DNA of 64,000 nt, from NCBI GenBank assembly GCA_963675595.2, contig CAXXLZ010000002.1:1024001-1088000 (forward strand), in the 5' to 3' direction. The notes under the pieces were generated by a model. The model was given only the letters and a program-made list of their open reading frames with translations, did not search any database and was not told where the DNA came from. Made by a program: the position numbers and the translations under genes. The DNA is from Thermodesulfobacteriota bacterium (GTDB lineage Bacteria > Desulfobacterota > Desulfarculia > JACQYL01). Positions 1 through 45,921 of this stretch are shown piece after piece. Within the stretch, counting starts at the first letter, position 1; every line of letters starts with the position of its first letter.

Positions 1-4
1 TCGT

Positions 5-1255
5 GTGGTAGACGTGGGACAAGCCATGGTGCGAGGGGAACACGGATTTGTCCCTTGGGTAAGTCTGTCGACGCAAGAGGAAGGGTGGCTCGCCTTCGCA
101 CCCGTTGAAGTGGGCGGCTGGTCTCTCGGCGTGTTCTTTCCGGAAAAAGAGCTCATGGAAAGCGTGAACCGGCTTACGCGAAATGCGCTTCTGTTGGGTT
201 CGGGGGGGTTTTTGGCGCTCTTGGGGATCGTGTTCCTCGCGGCGCATTCCATGACCCGACCTTTAAGGGAGCTGGCCCAAAGCACGGTGGAAATCGCGGA
301 AGGCAACCTGGACGCCGTGTTACCCGAAGTGAGGTCCCTCGACGAAATCGGACGTCTCACCCGGGCCTTCGAACACATGACCCAAGCTCTCAAAGAACAT
401 ATACGCCGGCTCACCGAAGCCACCCGCGCGAGAGAACGAATAGAGAGCGAATTGAGTATCGCCCGCGACATCCAGATGGGCATCCTCCCCAAGCTTTTTC
501 CCCCTTTTCCCGAGGAACACCAAGTCGACATCTATGCCGTGATCCTGCCCGCCAGGGAAGTGGGAGGAGATTTCTACGACTTCTACCGTGTGGATTCGGA
601 CAGAATCTGCTTCGTGATCGGGGACGTCTCCGGAAAGGGGGTGCCCGCTTCCCTGTTCATGGCGGTGGCCAAAACTCTGATCAAGGCGGCCGTGGGGGGC
701 GGTCTCGGCCCCGGGGACGCTCTGCGCCGTGTAAATGAGGAATTGGCCGAGGAAAACGAGGCGTGCATGTTCGTAACGGTCTTTCTGGGTATCATAGACT
801 TGAGAACCGGTGGCATCGAATATGCCAACGGCGGGCATAACCGTCCTTTCGTCCTTCCCAAACAGGGAGAGATCGCGGTCCTGCCGCCGAGCAATGGGGC
901 CGTTGTCGGCGCTTTGGAAGGGCTGGACTATGAAACCGGGGGTGCCTTCTTGAAGGAGGGAGACACGCTTCTTCTCTATACGGACGGAGTGACGGAAGCG
1001 CTCAACGAGCAGTTGGAGCTCTTCACGGAGGCTCGACTAAAACGCCTGCTGGAAGATGTCCGGGCAAAATCCCTCAAGGACACGGCGGCGAGAATCGTGT
1101 CCGAGGTAAAGGCGTTTGCGGGCGCTGCGGAGCAGGCCGACGACATCACTCTGCTCGCTTTGACTTATTACGGGGATCAAGGTCGAAACGACGGCGGTTC
1201 TCAGGATACCGCCCGCCGCATCGAGCAAGGGAGAACCACGCATGACGAAACCTGA
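5..1255 (+). CDS. HAMP + PP2C/SpoIIE (RsbU-like) Ser/Thr phosphatase, membrane-bound; N-terminal sensor (probably Cache) cut by window edge
   Basis: TM segment (ALLLGSGGFLALLGIVFLA), HAMP (TRPLRELA...DEIGRL), PP2C motifs EVGGDFYD, IGDVSGKG, LYTDGVTEA, DDIT; upstream 'WLAFAPVEVGGWSLGV' resembles a Cache C-terminus. Confidence 0.9.
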   Translation: MVDVGQAMVRGEHGFVPWVSLSTQEEGWLAFAPVEVGGWSLGVFFPEKELMESVNRLTRNALLLGSGGFLALLGIVFLAAHSMTRPLRELAQSTVEIAEGNLDAVLPEVRSLDEIGRLTRAFEHMTQALKEHIRRLTEATRARERIESELSIARDIQMGILPKLFPPFPEEHQVDIYAVILPAREVGGDFYDFYRVDSDRICFVIGDVSGKGVPASLFMAVAKTLIKAAVGGGLGPGDALRRVNEELAEENEACMFVTVFLGIIDLRTGGIEYANGGHNRPFVLPKQGEIAVLPPSNGAVVGALEGLDYETGGAFLKEGDTLLLYTDGVTEALNEQLELFTEARLKRLLEDVRAKSLKDTAARIVSEVKAFAGAAEQADDITLLALTYYGDQGRNDGGSQDTARRIEQGRTTHDET

Positions 1256-3566
1256 ATCGGCGTCCAAACCGCTCCAAATCGGCGTGTCGGTCCCGAGGGC
1301 GGACGGCTGGAGCAAGATCACGGGCCGAGAGCGGTACGCTGCGGACTACTATGGACCGGACTTTCTGTGGGCCGGGGTCAAACGCGCGGACATGTCTCAC
1401 GCCCTGCTTCGGGAACTGGACGTGGAAGCCGCCAAAGCCGTACCCGGTGTGACGGCCGTGTTGACCCACCGGGACGTGAAGGGTTCCAATCGGCAAGGTG
1501 TCGTGTTCAAGAACCAGCCTGTATTGGTGGACAAAAAGGTGCGACGACGCGGCGACGCCCTGGCGCTGGTCCTCGCCGAAAATCGGGAAGTCTTGAGCAC
1601 CGCTTTGAAGGCCGTGCATGTTCGTCTGGAACCGCTGCCGCCCGTGTTCTCCGTCGAGGAAGCGACGATGGAGGGTGCTCCCAAGGTGCACGAGGAGCAT
1701 CCCACCGGGAACATCCTGGCCGAGCTCACGGTAAGCAAAGGAAACGGCAAGGACGGCATCGACGAATGCACAGCCGTGGTGGAAGCTGAATTTGAACTAC
1801 CCCGCCAGGAACATGCGTACATGGAAACCGAGGCGGGTTGGGCCTACCTTGAGCATGACGGCCGTCTGGTCATCGTGGCCTCCACGCAGTCGCCTTTTCG
1901 CGATCGTTCGGAGGTGGCGGAAGCGCTGGGGATCGACATCGGCAAGGTGCGCATAACGGCTCCCTATCTGGGCGGCGGCTTCGGCGGGAAGGACGGGTGC
2001 ACGGTTCAAAGCCTGCTGGGACTCGCCGCGATGCACTCCCACGGACGGCCCGTGAAGATGTGGTGGGACCGTGAGGAGAGTTTTCTTGCCGGGGTGAAAC
2101 GTCTTTCCGGACGGGTCCGGTATCGTGTTGGAACAAACAAAGATGGTTGCCTGCACGCCCTCCAATGTGAACTGGACCTGGACAACGGGCCCTATGAGCA
2201 CTTGGGCGGCGAGGTGCTGGCGCTTGCGGTGGAACACGCGGGCGGTCCCTACCGGATTCCCCATGTGTGGATTCACGGACGATGTGTCTACACGAACAAC
2301 CCCGCCGGCGGTCCTTTTCGAGGATTCGGTGCGCCCCAGGTCGTCGCGGGCCTGGAGCAGGTCGTGGACATGCTGGCCGACCGATTGAACATGGACCCGG
2401 TTCTGTTCCGGATGCGAAACGCCGTAATCAGGGGAGACCGAAACCCCGTCGGAGTCACTCTCACTCAGTCCACAGGCCTGCTGGAATGTCTAGAACAGGT
2501 GACGCGGCATCCCCTTTGGACGGAACGACGAGAATGGAAGCGTCGTGCCGGCGCATTCAAAAAACGTGGTGTGGGTGTTGCCTGCACGACTCATGGTGCC
2601 GGATACGGACCGATTATCCCGGACTTCGCCCAAGCGCTCATCAAACTCACGCCCGAAGGCAGGATCACGGTTACCTGCGGCGTGCCGGATATGGGGCAGG
2701 GCAATGCCGCGACCTTTGTTCAGATTGCGGGCCACCTGCTGAACCAGAGCGCCGACCGTCTGGACCTGGTGCTTCCCGACACGGATCACACACTGCCTTC
2801 GTGCTCCTCCGCTGCGAGCAGAACCACCTATACGTATGCCAGGGCTCTGACGGGAGCCGCCGAATTACTCAAGAAACGAATTCTCGAGCAGGCGTCTCTC
2901 CTGATGATGGCCCCATCTCCCGACGAATTCCGGCTGCTGCCCGGGATGGTGCGTCATCTTCCTTCGGGTAAGGACCTGCCGTTGGCCATGGTGGCCCGCA
3001 CCATGTCTCCTTCGCAACGGGAATGTACCTACCACTGGCGTGCGCCGGTGTGCAGGGAACCCGTCCGGATGGAAAGCGTTTCCACGGTGTTCGGCATGCC
3101 GCACCTGCTCTTTTCCTATGCGGCCCACCTGGCCTGCGTCGAAGTGGATGAACTCACGGGCCGCGTCCAGGTTCTTAAATATCTCGCGGCGACGGATGCG
3201 GGAAGCGTCATCAATCCGCAGCTCTATGAACAGCAGGTCCAGGGTGGTATCGTTCAGGGCCTGGGATACGGTCTGTATGAAGATTACGTGGTTGACCGTG
3301 GAGAGGGACAAACACCGGATTTCGCCACCTACATCCTTCCCACCTCCATGGATGTGCCGGATATGGAATCCCTGCGGGTGGAAACCTTTGAGGAAACCGG
3401 TCCCTTCGGTCTCAAGGGAGTGGGAGAAATCTGCATAAACGCCCCGTTGCCGGCGGTGGCCAACGCACTCGCCGACGCCGCCGGCGTTCGAATCTCGCGA
3501 ATTCCCATGACCCCGGAACGAGTCTTGGACGCCTTGAGCCGGATTCAATCGGAGAAAACTTCATGA
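1242..3566 (+). CDS. Xanthine dehydrogenase/aldehyde oxidoreductase family, molybdopterin-binding large subunit
   Basis: Motifs QEHAYMET, GGGFGGK, FRGFGAPQ, DMGQG, SRTT, GLKGVGE; start overlaps the upstream stop by 14 nt. Confidence 0.93.
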   Translation: MTKPESASKPLQIGVSVPRADGWSKITGRERYAADYYGPDFLWAGVKRADMSHALLRELDVEAAKAVPGVTAVLTHRDVKGSNRQGVVFKNQPVLVDKKVRRRGDALALVLAENREVLSTALKAVHVRLEPLPPVFSVEEATMEGAPKVHEEHPTGNILAELTVSKGNGKDGIDECTAVVEAEFELPRQEHAYMETEAGWAYLEHDGRLVIVASTQSPFRDRSEVAEALGIDIGKVRITAPYLGGGFGGKDGCTVQSLLGLAAMHSHGRPVKMWWDREESFLAGVKRLSGRVRYRVGTNKDGCLHALQCELDLDNGPYEHLGGEVLALAVEHAGGPYRIPHVWIHGRCVYTNNPAGGPFRGFGAPQVVAGLEQVVDMLADRLNMDPVLFRMRNAVIRGDRNPVGVTLTQSTGLLECLEQVTRHPLWTERREWKRRAGAFKKRGVGVACTTHGAGYGPIIPDFAQALIKLTPEGRITVTCGVPDMGQGNAATFVQIAGHLLNQSADRLDLVLPDTDHTLPSCSSAASRTTYTYARALTGAAELLKKRILEQASLLMMAPSPDEFRLLPGMVRHLPSGKDLPLAMVARTMSPSQRECTYHWRAPVCREPVRMESVSTVFGMPHLLFSYAAHLACVEVDELTGRVQVLKYLAATDAGSVINPQLYEQQVQGGIVQGLGYGLYEDYVVDRGEGQTPDFATYILPTSMDVPDMESLRVETFEETGPFGLKGVGEICINAPLPAVANALADAAGVRISRIPMTPERVLDALSRIQSEKTS

Positions 3567-4036
3567 ACATCCGATTTGTCTTGAACGGCAAGCCCCTTAC
3601 CGTGGAGACACCGCCCGATCGTCGTGTGATCGACCTCCTGCGGGAGGACCTCGGACTCGCGGGAACCAAGGAATGCTGCGGTTCCGGGGAATGCGGGGCC
3701 TGTACCATTCTGGTGGACGGGGATAGCCGATTGTCCTGTCTTATGACGGCCGCTCAACTGGAGGGACGCCGCATACTCACCATTGAGGGCGCGGAGGAAG
3801 ACCCCCGTTTACGCACGATTCAAGAGGCCTTTGTTGAATGGGGAGCCGTTCAATGCGGCTACTGCATGCCCGGCATGGTTCTGGCCTCAGCCGCCCTTTT
3901 GAGCCGAACGCCGAACCCCAGCCGGGAACAGATTCGCGAGGGTCTGAGCGGCAACCTCTGCCGTTGCACGGGCTACCAGAAGATCGTGGACGCTGTGGAA
4001 CAGGCGGCGGCACTCTTGTTTCGAGGCCACCAATGA
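3563..4036 (+). CDS. 2Fe-2S small subunit of XDH-family enzyme (CoxS/XdhC-like)
   Basis: GTKECCGSGECGACT, QCGYC, GNLCRCTGY; ATGA overlap with upstream gene. Confidence 0.95.
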   Translation: MNIRFVLNGKPLTVETPPDRRVIDLLREDLGLAGTKECCGSGECGACTILVDGDSRLSCLMTAAQLEGRRILTIEGAEEDPRLRTIQEAFVEWGAVQCGYCMPGMVLASAALLSRTPNPSREQIREGLSGNLCRCTGYQKIVDAVEQAAALLFRGHQ

Positions 4037-4893
4037 CTCGAGACGTATTTATTCCCCGTAATCTGGAAGCACTTTGGGACCTGCTGGATGAAGACCCCGA
4101 AAGCCGAGTCTTCGCCGGAGGCACGGACCTGTTTGTGCGGCTGCGTCGTGATCAGGCCGTTCACCCGTCGTTGATCGGTCTGGAACGCATTGAGGAGCTT
4201 CAGGCCCTGGAAGAAGATGGTCCGGATGTGTTCATTGGAGCGTGCGTGACCCATGCGCGCATATCGGCTTCTCCCCTGGTGAAAAAGCACTTCTCCGTTC
4301 TGGAACAGGCGGTGCGCGTTTTGGGTTCACCGCCCATCCGTAATATGGGCACGTTGGGAGGCAACCTGGTCACCGCGTCCCCCGCTGGAGACACCATCCC
4401 TCCCCTCACGGTGCTGGGCGCGGAAGTGGAAGTAAGGAGCCGCGGCGCTTCCCGGCGGCTTCCCATACGAGAATTCATCCGGGGACCGGGACGCAGCGTG
4501 TTGGAACAAAAAGAAATCCTATCGGGAATTCGTCTAAGGAAAGACAACGTCCATACGGTCCACCATTTTGAAAAAGTGGGGCAACGCAACGCCTTGGCCA
4601 TCGCCGTGGTCTCCTTGGCCGCGGTGCTCCGCTTGTCCGAATCCGGCGTGGTCGAAAGGGCGAGACTGGCTTGGGGCAGCGTGGGACCCACGGTAATCAC
4701 CTCACGGGAGGTTGAACGGATCATCGAGGGGCGTCCCCTTTCGCGGCAAGTATTGGAGGAAGCCGCCATGCAGGCACAGAAGGAAGTATCCCCCATCGAC
4801 GACCTTCGAGCGAGCGCCGACTATCGCCGCCGCGTGGCGGGAAATCTGCTCTTGCGTCTGTGGACCCGGCTCAAAACGTTGGACGAATCATGA
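4033..4893 (+). CDS. FAD-binding medium subunit of XDH-family enzyme (CoxM/XdhB-like)
   Basis: AGGTDL, IRNMGTLGGN, SPAGD, PIDDLRASADYR; start placed at the ATGA overlap (4033) rather than 3838. Confidence 0.92.
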   Translation: MTRDVFIPRNLEALWDLLDEDPESRVFAGGTDLFVRLRRDQAVHPSLIGLERIEELQALEEDGPDVFIGACVTHARISASPLVKKHFSVLEQAVRVLGSPPIRNMGTLGGNLVTASPAGDTIPPLTVLGAEVEVRSRGASRRLPIREFIRGPGRSVLEQKEILSGIRLRKDNVHTVHHFEKVGQRNALAIAVVSLAAVLRLSESGVVERARLAWGSVGPTVITSREVERIIEGRPLSRQVLEEAAMQAQKEVSPIDDLRASADYRRRVAGNLLLRLWTRLKTLDES

Positions 4894-6107
4894 ACGATTC
4901 CAACCGCGTCGTGGACTCCGCACCCGAAATAGGCATCCAATCCATGTGGAACGGTCGGTTCGCCGCCCTGAATGGAGCGGTATTCCTCGCCTTTGCCAAT
5001 TTTGCCGTCTTCTTCCAGTATTACGCCTACTTGAAGACCCTGCAAATCGACGCCCGCTGGTTCGGACTGCTCATGGGCGTGTTCTCCGGCATGGCTTTGT
5101 TGCTGCGGCCGTTCATCAGTCCCCTTTTGCATGCCGGCAACGCGACGCGATGGATCATCGTGGGCGACCTGGGGACCATGGCCTGCTTGGCGTCCTACGG
5201 CTTCGCGGACGTATTCGAAACCATGTTCGTACTCCGCATACTCCACGGTGTGTTCCACGTGATCCTGGCCACCGGACTCCTGACCCTCATTGTGGAACAC
5301 ATACCTCCGAAGCGGAGCGGTCAGGCTTTCGGAATCATTTCCATCGTCGTTCTGCTGCCCTATGCCGTGGTGCCGTCCACCCTGCCGCTCCTTTCCGCGT
5401 GGCTCGGAGGATACGCCCGGGTCCTGATGTTTTTCGCGGCAGTCATGATATTCGTACTTCCCCTCACCTTGTACAAGGCCTCTTTCTCAGCCTCGGCTGC
5501 AACCGACGGGGCGGGCAAGACCTACAAGCTGTCTCGCGCGGAATACGCTCAGGACCTGAAAGACCCGAGGGTGCTCCTGCTTCTCACGGTCATGCTGCTT
5601 TTCTACAGCGGGTATGCTCTGGTGTTCTACTTCCTCGCCGGCTTCGGCCGCAGCATCGGATTGGCCGGAGTGGGCTTTTTTTTCACACTTTCCTCCATCA
5701 GCGAAATCGCCGTCCGCGTCTCCATGGGGTCCCGCTTCGACCGAGGCGATAAGACCCTCACCTGTACCATGGCCATGGGTGCTACCGTGCTGGGCTATGC
5801 CCTGCTTCCCCACGTTGAATCCTCCATGTGGTTCTTCTTCTTTGGGGGATTTCTGGGTCTGTGCTGGGGGGTCGTCATGCCCATGTTGAACGCACTGATG
5901 TTCGACGTGTCCCCCCCCAAGTTTCGCGCGGTCAATGTGAATCTGGGACTTCAGATGTATCAGGGAGGCTTCTTCCTGGGCCCGCTGGTGGGAGGCTTTC
6001 TTGCGGCGCGTACAGGGTTCGGAACGTTGTTTTCCTTGTGCGCGGTGTTGAGTCTCCTGTCCGTGTTTCTCCTGATCCTGTTGAAAAGGAACCCGTCCAG
6101 GAATTGA
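4890..6107 (+). CDS. MFS transporter
   Basis: About 12 hydrophobic segments, GSRFDRGDK loop motif; ATGA overlap at 4890. Confidence 0.88.
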   Translation: MNDSNRVVDSAPEIGIQSMWNGRFAALNGAVFLAFANFAVFFQYYAYLKTLQIDARWFGLLMGVFSGMALLLRPFISPLLHAGNATRWIIVGDLGTMACLASYGFADVFETMFVLRILHGVFHVILATGLLTLIVEHIPPKRSGQAFGIISIVVLLPYAVVPSTLPLLSAWLGGYARVLMFFAAVMIFVLPLTLYKASFSASAATDGAGKTYKLSRAEYAQDLKDPRVLLLLTVMLLFYSGYALVFYFLAGFGRSIGLAGVGFFFTLSSISEIAVRVSMGSRFDRGDKTLTCTMAMGATVLGYALLPHVESSMWFFFFGGFLGLCWGVVMPMLNALMFDVSPPKFRAVNVNLGLQMYQGGFFLGPLVGGFLAARTGFGTLFSLCAVLSLLSVFLLILLKRNPSRN

Positions 6108-6165
6108 AGCCCATAGAACAGGCTTCCGGTCCGTTCAGAACAAGAAAGGAAAGGAGTGTGAATCC

Positions 6166-7203
6166 GTGACCGAAAACCACACGAATCAATCGGAGATCGA
6201 GCCCGGGCAACCCTGGGAAGTGGACCTGTTTCGTCCGGAAGACGCTGAAGGAGTGGTGAGACTCTTTCGCATCGTTTACGGGGAGGGCTACCCCATAGCA
6301 ACCTTTATGGATGCCGACAAACTCATCGCGGAAAACGCGGCCGGCCGGGTGATTTCCAGTGTGGCCCGCACCCCGCGAGGGGACATCGTGGGCCACAACG
6401 CCTTGTTCAACAGCGCTCCTCACCTCGGAACCTACGAGTCGGGAGCGGGATTGGTGCACCCCGCCTATCGAGGAGGACGCGGTATCTTCAGCACCATGGG
6501 CCTGCACGGCCAGGAATTGGCCGCGCCGCTTTTCGAAGTGGATATGATTTTCGGAGAACCGGTGTGCAACCATCCTTATGCACAGAAAGCCACCGCCGGC
6601 CGGAATTTCATCACCCGTGCCATAGAAGTGGACCTGATGCCCGCCGCCGCGTACACCAAGGAAAAGAGCGCGGTCGGCAGGGTGACCACGCTTCTGGACT
6701 TCAAGACCTTTCGACCGAGACCTCATCGGGTCTATCTCCCTGAAGTCTATGAAGAGGCCCTTCGTTTCGCTTATGAAGGCATGGATGACGAAAGAGAATT
6801 CTGCATTTCCCGCGAAACCGCCCCTCCGGATGTGAAAACCGTCATGAACACACAGGTCTTTTCCTTCGCGCAAGTGGCTCGGCTGGCCGTGCATGAAATC
6901 GGTCCCGACTTAAGTCGGGTGATGGATGACACGGAACGCAGCCTGAACGAACAGGGGATACTGGTGATCCAGGTGTGGCTTAAGGCTTCCTGTCCCTGGC
7001 TTGCCCAGGCGGTGGATACTCTGCGGGAACGGGGCTATTTTTTGGGGGGTGCGCTCCCAAGGTGGTTTGACGACGACGGGCTTCTCATGCAGAAGAGGAT
7101 CGGCGCACCTTGCTGGGACACGATCGTTCTTGCGTACGACCGGGCTCGACGGCTACTGGAATGGGTCCGGAGGGACTGGTCCCAAAAGACCCCACCCGCA
7201 TGA
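6166..7203 (+). CDS. GNAT-fold (probably tandem GNAT) acyltransferase-like protein
   Basis: Motif A-like GLVHPAYRGGRGI; RBS AAGGAG upstream; second GNAT-like half ending RERGYFLGGALP. Confidence 0.7.
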   Translation: MTENHTNQSEIEPGQPWEVDLFRPEDAEGVVRLFRIVYGEGYPIATFMDADKLIAENAAGRVISSVARTPRGDIVGHNALFNSAPHLGTYESGAGLVHPAYRGGRGIFSTMGLHGQELAAPLFEVDMIFGEPVCNHPYAQKATAGRNFITRAIEVDLMPAAAYTKEKSAVGRVTTLLDFKTFRPRPHRVYLPEVYEEALRFAYEGMDDEREFCISRETAPPDVKTVMNTQVFSFAQVARLAVHEIGPDLSRVMDDTERSLNEQGILVIQVWLKASCPWLAQAVDTLRERGYFLGGALPRWFDDDGLLMQKRIGAPCWDTIVLAYDRARRLLEWVRRDWSQKTPPA

Positions 7204-7248
7204 AGCACGAAGCCGGTGGACGGGCGGCGCCGAAAGGAAGAGACGCCT

Positions 7249-8385
7249 TCAGGCCTTGGACCTCTTTTCTCCGATGTATCCGTCCAAAATGTTTTCCAGG
7301 GCTTGAACGAAGGCATCCAAGGCCGGTCTTTCCGCAATGGTCACCCGGATGTGGTCGGGAAAGCGGAAGCCGGTCATGGAACGTATCATGACTCCGTGCT
7401 TCATGAGCTTCCTGTAGGCCAACGTGTCGCTTATGGGAAGCCGAATCATCAGAAAGTTGCCTTCTCCGGCCACATGGGGCAGGCCCAACCGGTTCAGCTC
7501 CCCGGACAGGTACGCCTTCCCCGCCTCCACCATGGCACGCGTACGGAGAATGTGCTCGCCATCGCCCAACGCGGCCAGAGCCGCCTCCTGGCCAAGGGTG
7601 TTCACCGAATAAACCACGCACGTGCGGCGAATCACGTTCACCACCTCCCGATCCCCCGCCAGATAGCCTATACGCAGGCCCGCCAGAGCAAACATCTTGG
7701 AAAACGTCCGGAACACCACGAGGTTGGGATACTCCCGGATCAACTCGATGCCGTTGGGGAAGTCGTCTCGCCGGACGAATTCGAAGTAAGCCTCATCCAC
7801 CACCACGATCCCGGCGCCGGCCACGCGATCCAGGAACTTCCTGAGACGGGCCTCACTCCAATAGGTCCCCGTCGGATTGTTGGGATTGCAGACAAACAGT
7901 ATTCTTGTCCGGTCATCCATCCGCGCGAGCATGCCCTCATCGTCGAAGCCGTATTCTTTCAGAGGGACCAACTCCGCTCTGAAACCGGAGAACTCCGCCA
8001 CCCATTCGTACACGGCAAAGGTCTTGTCCGCCGTGACGATATTGTCGCCTTCACGGCAGAATGCTTTGATCACGAAGGCGATCACCTCGTTGGCTCCGTT
8101 CCCCACCAGGATTTGATCGGGGTGCAGCCCGTGAATCTCGGCGAGACGGCATCGCAGATGATACGAATCGCCGCTGGGATACACCGAAGCTCGCGGCGGA
8201 GGAAATCGTTCCAGAACCTCTCTCGCCCCCCTGGGCGGCCCCAGAGGATTTTCGTTGTTGTTGAGGCGGATGATGCGGGAACAACCGTAGAGCTTCATCA
8301 GCTCGTCGTCCGGCTTGCTAGGAATATACGCGTCAAAAGCTTTGACGTGCGCCGGCACCAGCCTGTCCAGGTCGAAACCGATCAT
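7249..8385 (-). CDS. PLP-dependent aminotransferase class I/II, histidinol-phosphate aminotransferase (HisC)-like
   Basis: NNNENPLG, NPNNPTG, VDEAY, RTFSKMFALAGLRIGY (PLP Lys); start at 8385 makes an ATGA overlap with the upstream gene; not within a his operon, so no symbol given. Confidence 0.9.
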   Translation of the reverse strand: MIGFDLDRLVPAHVKAFDAYIPSKPDDELMKLYGCSRIIRLNNNENPLGPPRGAREVLERFPPPRASVYPSGDSYHLRCRLAEIHGLHPDQILVGNGANEVIAFVIKAFCREGDNIVTADKTFAVYEWVAEFSGFRAELVPLKEYGFDDEGMLARMDDRTRILFVCNPNNPTGTYWSEARLRKFLDRVAGAGIVVVDEAYFEFVRRDDFPNGIELIREYPNLVVFRTFSKMFALAGLRIGYLAGDREVVNVIRRTCVVYSVNTLGQEAALAALGDGEHILRTRAMVEAGKAYLSGELNRLGLPHVAGEGNFLMIRLPISDTLAYRKLMKHGVMIRSMTGFRFPDHIRVTIAERPALDAFVQALENILDGYIGEKRSKA

Positions 8386-9707
8386 CGCTGCGCCCCGTTT
8401 CCTAGATACTGGAACACCACAACGTCCCCTTCTCCTCCATGAGGAATCACCAGACGCGGCTCGAACTCGCTGTCCAGGAGGGCGGGCGCCAGATCCGCCT
8501 GGGTGGGTTTGCCGGTATCCAGCTCGAACAATACCTGAGACATCCCTTCGTCCCGCAAGAGCGCCATGTGGCGCGACAGGTTCTCGCCGGCATCGGCCCC
8601 TTCCCAAAGAGAACGAAGGGTAACCGTTTGCAGGGAGGAATCGAATTCCGTCGAAAAGACCGAATGGGCGGAACGGTGTTCTCCGGCCGGTTCCACTAAT
8701 TGAAGGGAACGCCCGAGGTACAGGCGCTCGTACTGCTCCTCCAAAAATCCTCGGAGCCTGGGATGACACCACACGCTCCGGCCGGGGTCCTCCTTGAGTT
8801 GCCGGTACAGCACCGACTCGGAGACGGCGGACCCTTCCGCACGCCGGTGAATCAAGGACCCCAAAAACTCCATGTATCCGTCGGGAATCCCTGTCGCTCC
8901 GCAGCGACATATCACTCCCAATGCGTCCGTACGACCGTGTTTTCCGATACACTCGTCCAGGAGCGTCCGCGCCATGGCCGCGCGGTCCGAAGCGCTAAAA
9001 ACATAGGGACCGAAGATTTCCACCAATCCGGAACCCAGTCGACGCCACACGATCCCTCCCCCGATACGCATGCCCTCGTCGCGGGCTGCGAGAATTCCAT
9101 ATTCTCCGCACGCAGCCACATCCACCAGCTTGCCTGGAAAATGGAAGATTCGGGGAACCTCCGAAGCAGGGAAGTAACGGCTGATCCCGGAAGCCAGCAC
9201 CTTGGCTTCCTCCGAATTCGGAGTTACCACCTCGAAAGAATCCAAAGGAACCGGTTCCGATCCGCTCTCCCGTGGAGGTTCTTCCGGGTAGGCTTTCTCT
9301 TTGGTGAGCACCAGATGAATTCCCCTCGGGGGATATTCGGAAATCTGTAATCGATCAACGGATCGAGCGGCCAGGAGCAGCCCCAGATCTTCCAGGTCCG
9401 ACTCGCGTTCCGGCGAAAATGTGGCCGTCAAATTGAATGCTTCCATGCGGAACGGTTGAACAGGAACAATCAAGGAGAGTCGGACACAATAAATGCCGTC
9501 GGAACACTCCGCTTCCAGTTCCCGACCCGACTCACCTACACGAGTCAAGTAGGCGAAAAGCTCCTCCGCAGCCAAGACCAGCTTCAAAGTATCGGCGATT
9601 CCCATGCCGAAGGCATGCGAAGCGTTTTCCACCAGGGAAACGAACGTGTTTAAGAACGCAGACTCCAGCGGAATACGAATGGACAAAGTCTTACCGGGCG
9701 AGGTCAT
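8382..9707 (-). CDS. Degenerate RsbW/SpoIIAB-like HATPase domain fused to a GNAT-like region paralogous to 6166-7203
   Basis: N-terminal KLVLAAEELF and DLGLLLAARSVD resemble anti-sigma kinase N/G2 boxes; remainder aligns by eye with the 345-aa protein; RBS AGGAGG. Confidence 0.65.
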   Translation of the reverse strand: MTSPGKTLSIRIPLESAFLNTFVSLVENASHAFGMGIADTLKLVLAAEELFAYLTRVGESGRELEAECSDGIYCVRLSLIVPVQPFRMEAFNLTATFSPERESDLEDLGLLLAARSVDRLQISEYPPRGIHLVLTKEKAYPEEPPRESGSEPVPLDSFEVVTPNSEEAKVLASGISRYFPASEVPRIFHFPGKLVDVAACGEYGILAARDEGMRIGGGIVWRRLGSGLVEIFGPYVFSASDRAAMARTLLDECIGKHGRTDALGVICRCGATGIPDGYMEFLGSLIHRRAEGSAVSESVLYRQLKEDPGRSVWCHPRLRGFLEEQYERLYLGRSLQLVEPAGEHRSAHSVFSTEFDSSLQTVTLRSLWEGADAGENLSRHMALLRDEGMSQVLFELDTGKPTQADLAPALLDSEFEPRLVIPHGGEGDVVVFQYLGNGAQR

Positions 9708-10035
9708 GCGGACGCCTCCTGCAATGATTTTTCAACGATGGTGCGGTCGGTGCTCCGCCTCCGGATGCGGACGCTCAACGACGTGAGAAACGTGGCTCGG
9801 ATGGTGATCACACGTTCCGGTACACACAGGCTTCGTTCTTCACCGGACCGAAACGGCAATGATGAATATGGCATCATAACGCGACGAGTCGAATACCGCC
9901 ACACGGAATCCGTCGGCAACCGGGTGCGATCCCGAAATTGTCCGGGATGACGATCCTCACTTTTTCGGATGATGTTCTGCGAATCCGGACCGGGAAAGGA
10001 ATCTGGGAGGTTTCGGCGGGAAGCGGCGGTCCAAC

Positions 10036-10230
10036 TCAAGAATATCGCTGCGGGTGTAAGGAGTAGGAGACTTGAAGCCTTCTCATGAATTCCGCCGCAT
10101 CATTCGGATAGCTTGTCTTCAGCACTTTCGGAAAAATCCGGTCGATGTAGCAGTCGTCACACAACATCTCGGAATGAAATTCTCTTCCCTCATCATCGGG
10201 AATGGTTTCACGGCACTGATCGCAGGTCAT
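10036..10230 (-). CDS. Small Cys-rich (CxxC...CxxC) putative zinc-binding protein, 64 aa
   Basis: MTCDQC...LCDDCY; co-oriented downstream of the LuxR gene. Confidence 0.6.
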   Translation of the reverse strand: MTCDQCRETIPDDEGREFHSEMLCDDCYIDRIFPKVLKTSYPNDAAEFMRRLQVSYSLHPQRYS

Positions 10231-10292
10231 TACTTTGCCCGTTTCCCCGGTCTGATGATGAAGAACGTTATGACGACATGCGCGGCGAGGGT

Positions 10293-11000
10293 TCACACCA
10301 ATCCTTGGCGAGCGGCCCAAACCGCGGCCTGGGTGCGGTCGTTGACACCCAGCTTGTCGAAGATATTGTCCACGTGGCGCTTGACGGTATGGGGGCTCAA
10401 ATTCAAGACCTCGGCGATGTGGGGCTTGCTGAGCCCTTGAGACACCAAACGCAGCACTTCCAACTCGCGCATGGTCAGCGCACGTCCCGACACCGTTGGG
10501 AAGGAGCGGGGCTCGGGATAAGATCGGTTCAGCTCCTCCAACGAACGTTCGAGAGCGGCGAGACGGCGGATTTGTTTGCCTTGCCGTTCTTTGCGGTGCG
10601 AAATGTCGAAACTGATTCGGGCGACCAGGAGCACACGGCCGCGGCGGTCCAGGATCGGATACGCTCGCGCCTCCCTCCAGAGCACTCGCCCATCCTCAAG
10701 AACGATTCGGCGCTCCACCGCATGAGTGCGACCCGTAGCCCACACGGTTTTCACCGGGCAAGCGGATTCGCAAACCTCGTCACGGCCGAAAAAGGCCTCG
10801 TAGCAAAACCGGTCCACAATGGGGTTTCGTTCCCCGGACCGGCCTTCAGGCAACAGCGGCTCCCTGGCCCACACGATCCGGTAGGCGGAGTCCATCACCG
10901 CCAGGGAATCTCCCAAACCGGCCAAAATATCCCACGCCGATAACGCCGGCATGACGCGATCACCCGGGATCGCTTCTCGATTGGACTTCAGAACGGACAA
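10293..11000 (-). CDS. PAS-domain LuxR-family transcriptional regulator
   Basis: C-terminal LTMRELEVLRLVSQGLSKPHIAEVLNLSPHTVKRHVDNIFDKLGV; Cys-containing PAS (CYEAFFGRDEVCESACP); GGGAGG RBS before TTG. Confidence 0.9.
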   Translation of the reverse strand: MSVLKSNREAIPGDRVMPALSAWDILAGLGDSLAVMDSAYRIVWAREPLLPEGRSGERNPIVDRFCYEAFFGRDEVCESACPVKTVWATGRTHAVERRIVLEDGRVLWREARAYPILDRRGRVLLVARISFDISHRKERQGKQIRRLAALERSLEELNRSYPEPRSFPTVSGRALTMRELEVLRLVSQGLSKPHIAEVLNLSPHTVKRHVDNIFDKLGVNDRTQAAVWAARQGLV

Positions 11001-11136
11001 CCCGTGTCGCCTCCCACCCGTTTCCTATCAGCCGTTGCCGGCCGCATTAATGGACTATACGGTATTCCTCGCGCTCGATCAATGCACCGTTACGTCTCAC
11101 AACCGACCCGGAAACCCTGTTGTCACGGGAAACCCC

Positions 11137-11170
11137 AAAAAAGGGAGGACCGCCTAAGAAGCCCTCCCTT
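11137..11170 (-). terminator. Rho-independent terminator after the DUF3795 gene
   Basis: Minus strand reads AAGGGAGG...CCTCCCTT followed by a T-run. Confidence 0.6.
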
Positions 11171-11218
11171 CACAATGATCATGCCTGCGCGCAGCACGCG
11201 GCGCCCGCACTTGTCCAA

Positions 11219-11372
11219 CAGCCCGTTGAAAAAGTCGGATGATTGGAGATTGTTGAAAAACGATGACATGCAAGGCGCGCAAATCCCGAGAAATGAGACG
11301 TACCTAGAAGTACGTCGCAGTGACGAGGGACGAAGCGCAACGCCGCAGATCGCGTTTTTCAGCGGTCGGCTA
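11219..11372 (+). repeat. MITE-like dispersed repeat, copy A (full length)
   Basis: CAGCCCGTTGAAAAA...TGTTGAAAAACGATGACATGCAAGGCGCGCAAAT...GATCGCGTTTTTCAGCGG; matches the copies at 36.5, 41.7, 52.6, 54.1 and 59.2 kb. Confidence 0.85.
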
Positions 11373-11840
11373 AAGGGACCACCATTTGGTGGAATAGGTT
11401 TCCCTCACCCGCAGGGCCTTTTCCTCGGCCCAGCGTTCCAGTCCCATCTTCCGGATCAGGCAAAGATTGAAGACCTTGGTGTTGTGAGGAACCTTGTCGG
11501 CGCGGTCGGCATAGGGATGCAGATGATCGCAGGGAAACTCATCGCACTGAAAACAGAAGTCCACTCCCTTTGCTCGGCTGCAGGCATAAGCGGGACATGG
11601 TTCGCCTTCGCTGCGATTGGAAACCATGGGGTTCAAGTGAAGTTTGATGCACCCCCCTTGGGGCCGGCACCCTCGGCAAAACATGACCTCAACGGGCACT
11701 CCCAGAACGCGTTGATACCGCTCCAACTCTTCCATTGCCCTCGAGTCTTCACGGGCGAGGTAGAAAACGCAATTGAAGCAGTCCAGTCCGCAGGGAGCGG
11801 TCTTGAGAAGATAATCCACGACCCGGCCTTCTTCGGACAT
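11370..11840 (-). CDS. Cys-rich DUF3795-like protein
   Basis: APCGLDCFNC, CRGCR, CPAYAC, FCFQCDEFPC. Confidence 0.8.
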   Translation of the reverse strand: MSEEGRVVDYLLKTAPCGLDCFNCVFYLAREDSRAMEELERYQRVLGVPVEVMFCRGCRPQGGCIKLHLNPMVSNRSEGEPCPAYACSRAKGVDFCFQCDEFPCDHLHPYADRADKVPHNTKVFNLCLIRKMGLERWAEEKALRVRETYSTKWWSL

Positions 11841-11861
11841 GAATACCCTCCTGTTCTCAGC

Positions 11862-12662
11862 TCATTTGCCGTGGGTTCGGGCGATCTTTTCGAACATGTT
11901 CGTCATGCCCGTACCCAGATAGCAGAGCGAATCGATGTTCAGGTTCTCTTCGGCATCGGCGTCCCAGAACAGACTGAGATCGGAATCCATTCCTTCTTCG
12001 GGCTTCCAGTAACAGATCAGCATGGGAACCTTGGGCAGCGGATAGAGCACCACGGCCACATCGGAATCGAAGGCCCGTGCCGGTTCCGCTTGGAACACAT
12101 CGATCATGGTTTCGAAGAGGTCGGTGCATCCGTCGATCACTTTCTTCAACGTCTGTACGCATCGGTGTTCGAAGAACCGGCCCCAGTCCGGCCCTCCCGG
12201 GAGGTCTCGGAGCGGTACCCATCGGCCCGACGGCTCCTTACCCGAGCAGCGAATGATGTAGTTCAACAAAGGCATCCGCAACCACATATTGGTATGGCAT
12301 GTGGAAGCCACTTGCCCTTTCCGATCCACCAAAAAATCCTTTCCGAGCATGGGAACGGCGAGTTTGCCGTCCACGAGTCTCGCCCCCAGTCTCGACGTGG
12401 CCGAGTCGAAGTCCGTTTGGGCGACTTGACGCTCCAACTCCTCCACGATTCCCTGCTGATCCTGGTCCAGCCTATTCTCTCCTATAGACTGAACCCGACA
12501 AGACTCCACCACTTCGCCGGCCAGATGGGGGCAATCGGCGAGGGTCTTTTTGCCCTGCAGAACGCCCACGGCAAAGGTCATACAGGTGGGCATGCCGCAG
12601 TCACGGCAATTGGTTTTCGGCAATATTTTCAGGATGTCGAGATAGTTGTTGGCTTGCGGCAT
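11862..12662 (-). CDS. Putative Fe-S cluster domain + DUF3786 protein
   Basis: N-terminal LPKTNCRDCGMPTCMTFA...CPH; start chosen at the ATG at 12662. Confidence 0.8.
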   Translation of the reverse strand: MPQANNYLDILKILPKTNCRDCGMPTCMTFAVGVLQGKKTLADCPHLAGEVVESCRVQSIGENRLDQDQQGIVEELERQVAQTDFDSATSRLGARLVDGKLAVPMLGKDFLVDRKGQVASTCHTNMWLRMPLLNYIIRCSGKEPSGRWVPLRDLPGGPDWGRFFEHRCVQTLKKVIDGCTDLFETMIDVFQAEPARAFDSDVAVVLYPLPKVPMLICYWKPEEGMDSDLSLFWDADAEENLNIDSLCYLGTGMTNMFEKIARTHGK

Positions 12663-12999
12663 AAGTTTCCTCTCTTCACTTAATTGACGACCGTCATATA
12701 AGCCCGTCCGGCAAGAAAAAACAGGTGCGCGTGCAGGAAACCACGGGGGTGTGTGCACGGAACACGGCGGCATGCCGAACACTGCATTTGTCTCCAGTCT
12801 GGACATGCTGACAGTTGAAGCCGCAAAAAAAATCACCCGTTCGGGCCATTTTGTGGACGATCGATTTCGTCCCTTTCATCGACCTCGTGCAGGTTGGGAG
12901 TTGCGATCAAGGAAGGCATCGATGCCGGGCCCGGGGGCCCTATCACGTGCGGAGAAGAACCATGCTCCTGCGAATCGTCGGTCGGGAACGCGGCGCTGT

Positions 13000-14205
13000 C
13001 TATTCATGCCTGAGCGCGTCGATGGGATCCAGCCGAGCCGCCTTTCGCGCGGGGAAATAGCCGAAAATCACCCCTATGGCGGCGGAGAAAAGAAAGGAGA
13101 CAACCACGATGCCCGCATTCAAGACAAACGGTACATCGAGAACGTCCGCGAGCCGCACCGATGCGGCGAGCGCCAGGGCGATCCCGATCAAACCGCCTAG
13201 AGAAGACAACACCGCGGCCTCGACCAGGAATTGAAGCAGAACGTCTCTTTCGAGAGCTCCGACGGCAAGCCGGATACCGATTTCCCGAGTCCGCTCGGTC
13301 ACCGATACCAGCATAATGTTCATGATGCCGATCCCGCCCACCAAAAGGCTGACCGCGGCCACGGCGCCCAACAAGGCGGTGAGCACCTTGGTAGTCCCGG
13401 TAAGCGTTTTGGCAATTTCTTTCATGTCCCTCACATCAAAGTTATCGTCTTCGCTCGGGGAAAGATGGCGACGTTCCCGCATCAATTGCCGGATGTCTCG
13501 TTGGACTCTCTCCGTGGAAGCATCTTCCCGTGCCGAAACAAGCAGGAGGCTGATGTCCTGATTCCCGGCAATACGCCGCTGGTAGGTGCGCAGCGGGATC
13601 ACGACCACGTCGTCCTGATCGCGTCCCATGGCGCTCTGTCCTTTGGGCTCCAACAAACCGACGATTTGACAGGAAACCTTCCCCAGGCGGATCTTGCCGT
13701 CCACGACGTTCCGTCGCCCGAAAAGCTTATTGCGGACCGTTTCCCCCAAAATACATACGGCCGCACCGGACCGGAGTTCACTATCGGTGAAGAGCCTACC
13801 CGAGGATAGTTTCAGGTTGCGCACTTTGAAATACGAATTTTCCGTCCCGGTGACCGAGGTGGACCAATTCGAATTGCCGAACACGGCCATCACGGAACCG
13901 GAGGCAACAGGAGCCACGGAAGCGACTGAGCCGACCTCCCGGGCGATCGCCAAAGCGTCCCTTCGCTTGAACGGTGGAGCGGTGGATCTTTGACCGGGTC
14001 CCATCCGTTTTCCCTGAGTCACGATCAGCAGATTGCTGCCCAGCCCGGCAATTTCAGAGGTGACTTGTGCGGTGGCACCCCCGCCGATGGTCACCAGAGT
14101 AATCACCGCACCCACTCCGATGACGATGCCCAGCATAGTCAGGAATGAACGCATCAGGTTGCGCCTGATCTCACGCAACGCAAGCAGAATCGTGTTCCAG
14201 AGCAT
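13000..14205 (-). CDS. MacB/FtsX-family ABC permease
   Basis: RSFLTMLGIVIGV, GGIGIMNIMLVSVTERTREIGIR, PARKAARLDPIDALR. Confidence 0.95.
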   Translation of the reverse strand: MLWNTILLALREIRRNLMRSFLTMLGIVIGVGAVITLVTIGGGATAQVTSEIAGLGSNLLIVTQGKRMGPGQRSTAPPFKRRDALAIAREVGSVASVAPVASGSVMAVFGNSNWSTSVTGTENSYFKVRNLKLSSGRLFTDSELRSGAAVCILGETVRNKLFGRRNVVDGKIRLGKVSCQIVGLLEPKGQSAMGRDQDDVVVIPLRTYQRRIAGNQDISLLLVSAREDASTERVQRDIRQLMRERRHLSPSEDDNFDVRDMKEIAKTLTGTTKVLTALLGAVAAVSLLVGGIGIMNIMLVSVTERTREIGIRLAVGALERDVLLQFLVEAAVLSSLGGLIGIALALAASVRLADVLDVPFVLNAGIVVVSFLFSAAIGVIFGYFPARKAARLDPIDALRHE

Positions 14206-14942
14206 CAGGTTCTCTCCCCGTTGCGTGCATCCGATTCCACCAGACCATCCACAAAACGGATGACGCGCTTGGCATAGGCCGCCATGTCCTGTTCATGGGT
14301 GATCATGACGATGGTGATACCTTGGTCCCGGTTCAAGGACACGAGCAGTTCCATGATCTCGCGGCTGCGGGCCGTGTCCAGATTCCCAGTGGGCTCGTCC
14401 GCCAACAGCATGGCAGGCCCGGTGACAATGCCCCGGGCAATGGCCACCCGCTGCTCCTGACCGCCCGATAGTTCCCCCGGAGTGTGAGACTCCCATCCTT
14501 TGAGCCCCACCGTTTCCAGGGCTTGCAAGGCACGTGCCCGTCGTTCTTCCGCGGGCACTCCGCGATAAATCAAGGGGAGTTCCACATTCTCGAGCGCCGA
14601 CGTGCGTTTCAGCAGATTGAAGCCTTGAAACACAAACCCTTGGTAATGGCGACGCAGCAGGGCCCGTTGGTTGGACGAAAGTTGCCCCACCTCAACGCCT
14701 TGGAACCGATAAGAGCCGGCACTCGGAGTATCCAGGCACCCAAGAATATTCAAGAATGTGGATTTCCCCGATCCGCTGGGCCCCATTACGGCCAGGAAGT
14801 CACCCTCGTGGATGACGACGTCGATGCCCCGAAGCGCTTCCACCGCTCCAGGCCCTTCGCCGTAGACCCTGCGTATGCCCTCGAACACAATCAAGGGATG
14901 GTCGGAAGGATTCACCTCGGAAGGCGAGTCGACCAGCTTCAT
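14205..14942 (-). CDS. ABC ATP-binding protein (MacB/LolD type)
   Basis: Walker A GPSGSGKST, LSGGQ, LLADEPTGNLD. Confidence 0.95.
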   Translation of the reverse strand: MKLVDSPSEVNPSDHPLIVFEGIRRVYGEGPGAVEALRGIDVVIHEGDFLAVMGPSGSGKSTFLNILGCLDTPSAGSYRFQGVEVGQLSSNQRALLRRHYQGFVFQGFNLLKRTSALENVELPLIYRGVPAEERRARALQALETVGLKGWESHTPGELSGGQEQRVAIARGIVTGPAMLLADEPTGNLDTARSREIMELLVSLNRDQGITIVMITHEQDMAAYAKRVIRFVDGLVESDARNGERT

Positions 14943-16228: not shown

Positions 16229-16434
16229 GTCTCAGCTCCTTGAGGATATTTGCCTTCCCATCATTGACCGGAGAGGTCCGCCCCCGGTACCGCATCCCAT
16301 GTCCCGGGGTCGCCGGCGGAAAACGCATGTCCGTCGGATCCATGCCGTGGCACTTTCCAAATCTCGCGGGTCTCCGGGGCAACAGTTGAAGTTTTTATTT
16401 CGAGAAGCCGTCCAAGCGGGTGTCCATGGGCACG

Positions 16435-32724: not shown

Positions 32725-32738
32725 TTGAATGACCTCCC

Positions 32739-44979: not shown

Positions 44980-45094
44980 GTAGTGGCTCCTTTTTCGTCT
45001 GTGATGTTTACTTACACCTGTCGAGATGCCTCGGGGGCCTACCCCTCGCTCTCCCCGGGTTCCCGGCAGGCCAATAACTACAACTCTTATCTAT

Positions 45095-45109
45095 AAATAA
45101 CTATTCTCC
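45095..45109 (-). promoter_or_regulatory. Putative PerR/Fur box upstream of katA
   Basis: Minus strand GGAGAATAGTTATTT in an AT-rich patch; matches the site upstream of the perR-like gene. Confidence 0.5.
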
Positions 45110-45176
45110 TTATGTGCCCAAAAAAAATCCCGGCAATTCGATAGACCACGATCTACAGAGTACGACGTGATCGGAC

Positions 45177-45644: not shown

Positions 45645-45714
45645 GTTCCACCCAACGAAAAGGAATGCCGGCGACGCGCTTGCAGCGCCGCCAAGCGACC
45701 TACCCGCCCCCTTC

Positions 45715-45729
45715 GGAGAATCATTATTA
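45715..45729 (+). promoter_or_regulatory. Putative PerR/Fur autoregulatory box
   Basis: GGAGAATCATTATTA, a 7-1-7 Fur-type motif. Confidence 0.55.
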
Positions 45730-45921
45730 TTAGAGAATAACACCCATTCCATCAAAGATCAAGCAGTTCTATGCTGTGTTCACAACCGAGACATTCGATC
45801 GATCCTCGCTCCTATGCGTCCTCAAGGCTCAAAAAGCCGCTTGAATTTCCATCAAGATACTCTTCCGTTATACTCGTGGAATGCTTATGTTGATGTGGAT
45901 GTCGAGGATAGAAAGTGAACA

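Follow-up and report, generated by a model that had tools for sequence, protein, structure and literature searches.

The first 9,707 nucleotides (nt) of a 64,000-nt stretch of a Thermodesulfobacteriota genome (assembly GCA_963675595.2; contig C2 of genome G000 in our set, positions 1024001–1088000; this whole stretch is called the window) hold eight genes in two convergent, tightly packed units. They form one copy of a gene cluster, conserved among anaerobic Thermodesulfobacteriota and as yet undescribed, that occurs also in some Syntrophomonadaceae. One unit encodes a sensor phosphatase, the three subunits of a molybdenum (Mo) hydroxylase of the xanthine dehydrogenase (XDH) family (XDH-L, XDH-S and XDH-M), an MFS transporter and a putative acyltransferase, open reading frame (ORF) 6, while the other encodes a protein that we call ORF8 and an aminotransferase, HisC2. 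On the reading to which we give about half of our confidence, a partner-switching relay acts here through ORF8, a dead adaptor, on a dedicated line of aminotransferase, acyltransferase and transporter that is usually completed by the Mo hydroxylase. Partner switching is textbook machinery of sigma-factor control, and to our knowledge only a handful of other outputs have come to light. What would be new is not the switch itself but its pseudoenzyme-mediated metabolic output and its attachment to an uncharacterised pathway.

The genes are closely interlocked. The phosphatase and XDH-L genes overlap by 14 nt, and ATGA overlaps join XDH-L to XDH-S, XDH-S to XDH-M, XDH-M to the MFS gene and, on the opposite strand, ORF8 to HisC2, all read directly from the sequence; the 14-nt overlap, three ATGA junctions and coupled convergent pair given in a preliminary description of this DNA are thus exact. 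ORF8 and HisC2 appear from this arrangement to be a translationally coupled pair. One protein representative, P0238 (813 residues), is an in-frame fusion of ORF8 and HisC2 with its junction at about residues 440–450; an 812-residue open frame in genome G161, considered as another such fusion, was rejected because a stop separates the two genes.

Of 401 genomes sampled from the phylum, 47 (~12%) carry a single ORF8 copy by profile search, and 66 have matches to the ORF6 profile. Stretches of 12–20 kb around ORF8 were taken from 39 of the 46 other positive genomes and searched with the window proteins by tblastn, leaving out seven genomes with very short contigs or partial matches (G215, G288, G374, G127, G121, G362 and G089). 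HisC2 directly follows ORF8 in 38 of these 39 loci, genome G096 being the exception, and the two alignments end −19 to +57 nt apart in 36 of the 38. The remaining parts were counted as XDH-L in 25 loci, XDH-S in 23, XDH-M in 23, the MFS gene in 28, ORF6 in 24, a STAS protein in 16, a stand-alone RsbW-type kinase in 13, the PP2C phosphatase in 14 and an NMT1-like binding protein in 7; all are lower bounds, many loci ending at contig edges, and for genome G031 the other half of the cluster lies on a separate contig (L099). The usual order, with optional genes in parentheses, is (STAS) ORF8 HisC2 XDH-L/S/M MFS (GDSL) ORF6 (STAS RsbW NMT1 PP2C), where the GDSL genes, seen between the MFS gene and ORF6 in four loci, encode hydrolases with an N-terminal membrane helix. 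Judged by this order, the window locus would be a rearranged copy in which the ORF8–HisC2 pair is inverted and the phosphatase leads. Since the arrangement recurs across genomes, it is far beyond chance, and the co-occurrence of PP2C, XDH, HisC-like and STAS genes for which the preliminary description had proposed a search is found in the counts above. Full-text searches, whose scope did not extend to subscription journals and supplements, returned no published account of the cluster or of its architecture.

At E ≤ 0.01, neither ORF6 nor ORF8 of the window has a match in Pfam or NCBIfam, the curated GNAT models included, and their relatives are named at source 'hypothetical protein' or, generically, 'anti-sigma regulatory factor'. 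Among relatives, PF00583 is carried by 12–87% of members in related Atlas clusters, and PF13581 is matched by 28 of 45 ORF8 relatives. The AlphaFold models of the two proteins (predicted local distance difference test, pLDDT, 89.9 for ORF6 and 90.9 for ORF8) give their folds. Residues 14–188 of ORF6 match GNATs (VIA Z 13.3, root-mean-square deviation (rmsd) 2.6, 155 residues aligned; Foldseek E ~1e-8); residues 2–141 of ORF8 match SpoIIAB/RsbW (Z 15.8, rmsd 3.2, 136 aligned), with superposition Z scores of 15.8 for SpoIIAB, 15.0 for UsfX and 14.8 for RsbW; and residues 156–310 of ORF8 again match GNATs (Z 14.5, rmsd 2.3, 141 aligned). The C-terminal parts of both proteins suggest a second GNAT-like half, to judge from the strand–helix pattern of the models and the weak resemblance of ORF6, over its full length, to the acetyltransferase HisAT. 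Searched against the sequences of the PDB, the ORF8 profile gave nothing significant, its only matches being UsfX chains (E 0.48–0.65), nor did that of ORF6, whose best match was dopamine N-acetyltransferase (E 0.12). It is by structure, and not by Pfam or NCBIfam, that the GNAT-like character earlier claimed for ORF6 and the RsbW-like and GNAT-like halves claimed for ORF8 are borne out.

The two families differ in breadth. For ORF6 there are at least 1570 homologues, of which the top 120 share 57–76% identity with it, and the mean column identity over 36 aligned sequences is 65%. For ORF8, a word-index search gives 45 homologues, and 303 out of 1.84 billion representative clusters match at E ≤ 1e-30; identities across loci are 25–42%. 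Compared directly, ORF6 and ORF8 show no significant BLASTP similarity (E 1.2), and hhalign of the two family alignments, collinear over 286 columns, reaches E 0.0093 at a probability of 4.4%. Between them stands a family of ~500-residue proteins found among the weaker matches of the ORF6 profile. All ten members fetched match both profiles, that of ORF6 at E 2e-49 to 7e-36 over residues ~165–495 and that of ORF8 at E 2e-17 to 3e-5, and both of the two members scanned carry HATPase_c_2 above the Pfam cut-off. The alignment of the three families is collinear, with the common motifs Y..L...R, G.D and GF....P....D....Q. On the strength of this bridging family and collinear alignment, the C-terminal 290 residues of ORF8 are taken as a distant homologue of ORF6, and the paralogy claimed in the preliminary description is upheld through the bridge, not directly.

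The ~500-residue proteins, encoded in loci L082–L091 (for example L082 6351–7832 (+) and L086 3419–4927 (−)), combine an apparently intact RsbW-type kinase domain with an ORF6-like double GNAT, and are probably of the type from which ORF8 descends. Their neighbours include MFS genes in three of ten cases, SpoIIM-like genes in two and a STAS–RsbW pair in one. ORF6-type genes are likewise found in other settings. The window's own genome holds a second ORF6 paralogue (G000 C1:505485–506474 (−), locus L061 6465–7523; family-profile E 4.9e-112), whose neighbours are uninformative; genome G096, whose ORF8 stands alone on another contig, has four tandem copies followed by an MFS gene (contig C100, locus L077 7639–11775); G129 and G161 have two or three copies (loci L054 and L055); and in L092 5269–7308 (+) (G289) and L093 1742–3906 (G035) the ORF6-type domain is fused to (679 residues), or adjoins, an NAD-dependent sugar-nucleotide epimerase/dehydratase. 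Genes of the ORF6 type and of the ~500-residue type adjoin MFS genes repeatedly, also outside the cluster.

ORF8 has lost the catalytic signatures of both of its parent folds. The N, G1 and G2 boxes are the ATP-binding boxes of SpoIIAB/RsbW, with the patterns E..N, D.G.P and GGLG in the stand-alone RsbW proteins of related loci; in all 45 ORF8 members the N-box Asn and the G1 and G2 boxes are absent, with five residues missing at G2. GNATs bind the pyrophosphate of coenzyme A (CoA) by a Gly-rich β4–α3 loop with the motif Q/R-x-x-G-x-G/A. This loop, too, is absent from all 45, and a deletion of ~21 residues falls where ORF6 has a CNH...QK segment. ORF6, by comparison, has a [YF]RGG.G loop, close but not identical to the GNAT motif, in 111 of 120 members and CNH...QK in 94 of 120, and in the ~500-residue family the N and G1 boxes occur in seven of ten members, an RG.[GD] loop in eight and H...QK in seven. 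From these patterns ORF8 would be a dead adaptor, neither kinase nor acyltransferase, and ORF6 a putatively intact and active GNAT acyltransferase, as its model also suggests. Of the RsbW-type half that the preliminary description assigned to ORF8, the fold thus stands and the kinase falls, and the GNAT half is left with neither its cofactor loop nor the conserved segment.

The proteins that such an adaptor would serve are encoded among the unassigned ORFs of the related loci, where Pfam identifies a 112–117-residue STAS protein, a 133–137-residue HATPase_c_2 kinase, a secreted NMT1/THI5-like binding protein and an orthologue of the dCache–PP2C phosphatase. The STAS gene lies within ~500 bp of ORF8 in 7 of the 39 loci (L043, L070, L074, L073, L063, L071 and L079), and the serine loop YISSAGLR, whose serine is by analogy the likely phosphorylation site, is present in 17 of 17 STAS sequences. 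The stand-alone RsbW proteins match PF13581 at up to 3.7e-29, and of 13 compared, 9 keep the N box, 11 the G1 box and 10 the G2 box. STAS and anti-sigma genes, which the preliminary description had suggested seeking nearby, are therefore present in the clusters of relatives, while in the window's own genome the STAS–RsbW pair (G000 C2:604488–605364; 49.5% and 44.6% identical to the pair in L041) lies 420 kb away. Among the 47 genomes positive for ORF8, 43 have a STAS protein of the cluster type (E ≤ 1e-30), as do 30 of the other 354; the four exceptions are incomplete genomes or rest on partial ORF8 matches, and all five genomes checked in which the cluster is without switch genes encode the STAS type elsewhere. 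No gene of the Sigma70 family was found among 169 ORFs (46 + 123) flanking the clusters, though a sigma factor may be encoded elsewhere.

Predicted docking brings the two sides together. With the STAS protein of G000 (13-row alignment) and ORF8 residues 1–150 (45-row alignment) as inputs, the interface score ipSAE was 0.76, 0.76 and 0.74 in three runs, against 0.00 for the best of three controls; at least 94% of contacts are common to the runs, and partner pLDDT is at least 89. The mark so passed is reached by 116 of 157 solved complexes and by 2 of 215 mismatched pairs, counts that are approximate here, where our own alignments were used. In the predicted contact, STAS residues 52–57, the serine loop, meet ORF8 residues 41–52 and 108–116. 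The residues of ORF8 that are invariant in the family include E49, N92, A113 and R115, on helices facing STAS in the model, and E49, A113 and R115 are among those at the contact. ORF8 is accordingly predicted by the model to keep a STAS-docking face at the phospho-serine loop.

At the head of the relay, the phosphatase ORF starts ~803 nt before window base 1 (L009 11198..13255; 685 residues from the listed TTG). Its full length contains dCache_1 (1.7e-15), MCP-like_PDC_1 (1.7e-26), HAMP and SpoIIE domains by Pfam, so that the Cache domain sought upstream of the window is indeed there, and the protein appears from its domains to be a membrane protein with a periplasmic dCache_1/PDC sensor. Orthologues with 38–49% identity over ~640 residues stand beside the cluster in 14 of the 39 relatives; two further PP2C genes, in L062 and L081, were found by Pfam only and are outside this count. 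The best NCBIfam match is SiaA (NF038263), at 92.6 bits against an equivalog cut-off of 700. With approximate regular expressions built from the ligand-binding residue numbers in the excerpted text of PMC11245519, which describes the dCache_1PU and dCache_1AA motifs, the purine-sensor motif was seen in none of seven cluster phosphatases and the amino-acid-sensor motif in two of the seven, its Arg not being conserved, so that the motifs assigned no ligand.

At the other end stands HisC2. It passes the hisC equivalog model TIGR01141 (295.1 bits; cut-off 276.55), and its best solved match is a HisC (3ffh, 188 bits), but in six of six genomes checked another copy scores higher (315–348 bits), so that HisC2 is not the only HisC of its genome. 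It is 36% identical to the other HisC of G000 and 55–74% identical to the cluster copies, and in a quick tree the 38 HisC2 rows (one partial row dropped) stand apart from 11 other paralogues with an SH-aLRT support of 100. HisC2 would thus be a dedicated extra aminotransferase rather than the copy of the histidine pathway.

The Mo enzyme is less easily named. Its subunits miss every NCBIfam cut-off, with 511 bits for pucD against 783.65 (the best for XDH-L), 497 for XdhA against 780, 177.5 for pucE against 254.3 and 210.5 for XdhB against 310; its genes are also linked to the GNAT genes, so that the refuting case set in the preliminary description, a plain purine-catabolic enzyme apart from such genes, did not arise. 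The nearest solved chains to XDH-L are 4-hydroxybenzoyl-CoA reductase (290 bits), nicotinate dehydrogenase (287) and the aldehyde oxidoreductase of D. gigas (286), with true XDHs at ~199. XDH-L keeps the motifs GVGE and FRGFG, both of which have catalytic roles in Mo hydroxylases, and has Asp after GGGFGGK, where true XDHs have Glu. The MFS protein has weak NCBIfam matches only, the best being the metallophore exporter CntE (39 bits against a cut-off of 235). In clusters that lack the Mo enzyme, the slot after HisC2 is taken by an adenosine deaminase in two loci of the same genus (L056 8247–9224, for which TIGR01430 gives 254 bits against 216.55, and L076 6858–7832) and by a CDA-fold deaminase in L057 (7239–7769). 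Because Mo hydroxylases and these deaminases both add an oxo group to N-heteroaromatic rings, such a ring is proposed for the metabolite.

These parts could work together as follows. In the relay, the periplasm-sensing dCache–HAMP–PP2C phosphatase would work with an antagonist STAS protein, phosphorylatable on a serine, and with a small serine kinase of the RsbW type; the output of the relay would be not a sigma factor but ORF8, a dead descendant of an RsbW-kinase/double-GNAT fusion. An external ligand would alter phosphatase activity; dephosphorylated STAS would then switch onto ORF8, or release it from the kinase; and this would gate HisC2. The amine made by HisC2 would be N-acylated by ORF6, the intact double GNAT, its N-heteroaromatic ring hydroxylated by the three-subunit Mo enzyme in most clusters or acted on by a nucleobase-type deaminase in a few, and the compound carried across the membrane by the MFS protein. 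For this scheme we infer the order of the reactions, the nature of the substrate and export over import.

Several observations weigh against it. The STAS and RsbW genes of the window's own genome are far from the cluster, and no switch gene lies in the fetched stretch of 21 of the 39 relatives; with switch genes distant or outside the stretch, the link between ORF8 and the switch is partly phyletic. That association deserves no p-value, related genomes not being independent, and the STAS type occurs in 30 genomes that have no ORF8, 11 of which carry relatives of the ORF6 or the ~500-residue type. The Mo enzyme, absent from about one-third of the clusters, must for that reason be accessory, and ORF6 is missing from the otherwise complete clusters L062, L063, L064, L068 and L071. 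The docking score may reflect memory of the solved RsbV/RsbW and SpoIIAA/SpoIIAB complexes rather than retained binding, and the P0238 fusion is a single case that could be an assembly, indel or frameshift artefact at the ATGA overlap.

The same genes can be read in the opposite direction, as a module that senses, imports and degrades or detoxifies: the phosphatase, with the NMT1-like protein, would detect an external N-heteroaromatic or aromatic amino compound, the MFS protein import it and the enzymes break it down or inactivate it, the switch tuning their activity. This we find somewhat unlikely but deserving of attention, for when a sensor is encoded next to enzymes it is usually the substrate that it detects, XDH-family enzymes, adenosine deaminases and CDA-fold deaminases, which share a slot in the cluster, are typically catabolic or salvage enzymes, the MFS protein has no reliable exporter assignment, and esterase genes stand beside ORF6 (GDSL in four loci; a carboxylesterase in L099). 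Catabolic operons, on the other hand, are normally controlled at transcription, and here neither a conserved regulator nor a riboswitch or sigma-54 site came to light: Rfam gave no riboswitch or other RNA in window positions 1–13000 at E ≤ 0.1 and a single, unrelated match in eight related loci, a group II intron fragment, and of 40 stretches lying upstream of ORF8 or the PP2C gene, one had a site resembling a sigma-54 promoter. That intron fragment (D1–D4, RF02005, 79 bits) lies at the contig end of L047 (18364–18451 (+)). A GNAT gene beside an MFS gene also recalls blt–bltD of B. subtilis, reportedly an acetylate-and-export pairing, and ORF6 and HisC2 are so tightly conserved as to suggest a single constant metabolite, not a nutrient that varies; none of these points is decisive.

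Alternatively, ORF6 and the ancestral ~500-residue fusions could be protein acetyltransferases, the switch controlling the acetylation of metabolic enzymes, with the aminotransferase, Mo enzyme and MFS protein as targets or mere neighbours. The best fold matches do include RimI, RimJ, NatA/Naa10 and Ard1, fusion of a regulatory domain to a GNAT is a known layout of bacterial protein acetyltransferases, and the ~500-residue relatives occur in varied contexts. Yet small-molecule GNATs (phosphinothricin, spermidine, aminoglycoside and tabtoxin acetyltransferases) score equally in fold comparison, a fixed order with a transporter and the nearly constant coupling of ORF8 to HisC2 fit a pathway better, and the sugar-nucleotide epimerases/dehydratases that ORF6-type genes join or adjoin are a small-molecule context, so that we think a protein substrate improbable. 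Hardly credible is a chance row of ordinary genes, a purine-catabolic xanthine dehydrogenase with its permease, a housekeeping hisC and unrelated hypotheticals. The Mo subunits are, it is true, nearest to PucD/E- and XdhA/B/C-type models by hidden Markov model score and the aminotransferase exceeds the hisC cut-off; but the same set recurs in 39 genomes of many families, the XDH equivalog cut-offs are missed widely with solved true XDHs the lowest among relatives, HisC2 is an extra copy in a separate clade, and the HisC2 identities of 55–74% and ORF8 identities of 25–42% argue against a single recently transferred island.

Should the relay through ORF8 be as proposed, a partner switch would be wired to metabolism by a doubly degenerate pseudoenzyme, part dead kinase and part dead acyltransferase, to which a dedicated aminotransferase is coupled. 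The cluster lies in an environmentally important anaerobic phylum, has both of its signature proteins annotated only as hypothetical, and points to a wider uncharacterised family of RsbW-kinase/double-GNAT fusions; if its product were an exported signal or metallophore, it would open up small-molecule signalling in sulfate reducers and syntrophs. A bolder extension, which we consider quite unlikely, is that the cluster makes and exports an N-acylated heteroaromatic amine that its own dCache phosphatase senses, together with the secreted NMT1-like protein, the loop being closed post-translationally by the partner switch through the dead adaptor on the first enzyme. Sulfate-reducing and syntrophic anaerobes would then have an autoinducer circuit resembling quorum sensing, without recourse to transcription factors.

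Table 1. Genes of the cluster in the window, with the evidence for each assignment.
Feature	Position	Strand	Evidence
HAMP + SpoIIE/PP2C phosphatase, 3′ part of gene	2..1255	+	Pfam SpoIIE 5e-51, HAMP 1e-14
XDH-L: molybdenum cofactor (MoCo)-binding large subunit, XDH-family hydroxylase, 774 aa	1242..3566	+	Pfam MoCoBD_1, MoCoBD_2, Ald_Xan_dh_C
XDH-S: [2Fe-2S] small subunit, 157 aa	3563..4036	+	Pfam Fer2_2 4.7e-31, Fer2
XDH-M: FAD-binding medium subunit, 286 aa	4033..4893	+	Pfam FAD_binding_5 6e-45, CO_deh_flav_C 2e-26
MFS transporter, 405 aa	4890..6107	+	Pfam MFS_1 3.8e-31
ORF6: two-domain GNAT-fold protein, putative active acyltransferase, 345 aa	6166..7203	+	Structure match
HisC2: HisC-family pyridoxal-phosphate aminotransferase, 378 aa	7249..8385	−	Pfam Aminotran_1_2 2.2e-53, TIGR01141
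ORF8: apparently degenerate RsbW-like domain (~1–145) + degenerate ORF6-like double GNAT (~156–441), 441 aa	8382..9707	−	Structure match

Around these genes, a divergent polysaccharide-synthesis cluster, with an IS110-family transposase inside it (L009 5400–6518, +), precedes the phosphatase gene before the window start. Upstream of ORF8 lie ORFs of 111 residues (9704–10039 (−)) and of 94 Cys-rich residues (10036–10320 (−)) and a PAS + LuxR-type regulator (10293–11000 (−)); all three have no counterpart in the first 20 related loci and are probably outside the system. The remainder of the window holds efflux pumps, two-component systems, catalase and transposases, none tied to the cluster. It includes a pair of iron–sulfur (Fe-S)-type proteins at 11370–12836 (−), DUF3795 and a DUF3786 protein with a putative Fe-S cluster domain; tripartite efflux systems of a MacB-type ABC pump (13000–17955 (−)) and of an RND AcrB-type pump (28583–34118 (−)), each with HlyD and OEP; a catalase adjoining a Fur-family regulator (43468–45755 (−)); and a DDE transposase close to the window end (62010–63719 (−)).

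Among known systems, the closest in parts are the RsbU–RsbV–RsbW and SpoIIE–SpoIIAA–SpoIIAB modules of Bacillus, which share with the cluster a PP2C phosphatase, a single-domain STAS protein with a serine loop and a small HATPase_c_2 kinase with N, G1 and G2 boxes; the N-terminal domain of ORF8 superposes on SpoIIAB and RsbW, and its predicted contact with STAS likewise runs through the serine loop. They differ in that no sigma factor gene was found among the ORFs flanking the clusters, in the presumed receiver, here a kinase-dead RsbW-like domain that carries a dead double GNAT and has an aminotransferase coupled to it, and in the phosphatase, whose periplasmic dCache sensor is here often accompanied by a secreted NMT1-like binding protein. 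In the SiaABCD system of Pseudomonas, a HAMP–PP2C membrane phosphatase and a small kinase are said to control an enzyme, a diguanylate cyclase, and not a sigma factor. Non-sigma output under a phosphatase and kinase of this kind would be common to both, and SiaA is the best NCBIfam match of our phosphatase; its score, however, is far below the SiaA cut-off, the switch protein here is a true STAS protein and the output is something other than a diguanylate cyclase. The mycobacterial protein UsfX and, in Rv1364c, the RsbW domain, which are not known to have kinase activity, are precedents for RsbW-like domains that act by binding, and both match ORF8 in structure (8ih8, Z 15.0; 3ke6, Z 13.3), but they bind sigma F and are neither fused to a GNAT nor coupled to an aminotransferase.

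On the side of the enzymes, the histidine acetyltransferase HisAT/NAT16, a double GNAT according to the excerpted text of PMC12219266, resembles ORF6 in having two GNAT-like halves in a chain of ~330 residues and is its only full-length structural match (Foldseek E 2e-7; VIA Z 11.2, residues 12–293). It superposes poorly on ORF6 (template-modelling score 0.31; rmsd 7.2 over 202 residues), has no sequence similarity to it and scores no better than single-domain GNATs. With the three-subunit Mo hydroxylases (PucCDE/XdhABC, nicotinate dehydrogenase and 4-hydroxybenzoyl-CoA reductase) the window enzyme shares the set of MoCo, 2Fe-2S and flavin adenine dinucleotide (FAD) subunits and the GVGE and FRGFG motifs, whereas none of the equivalog cut-offs is reached, several characterised enzymes lie at about equal distances from it and the residue after GGGFGGK is Asp. 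HisC2, finally, is a HisC by its TIGR01141 score and by its best solved match, but differs from the HisC of the histidine pathway in being a second copy, in a clade of its own, that is coupled to ORF8 in all but one of the 39 loci.

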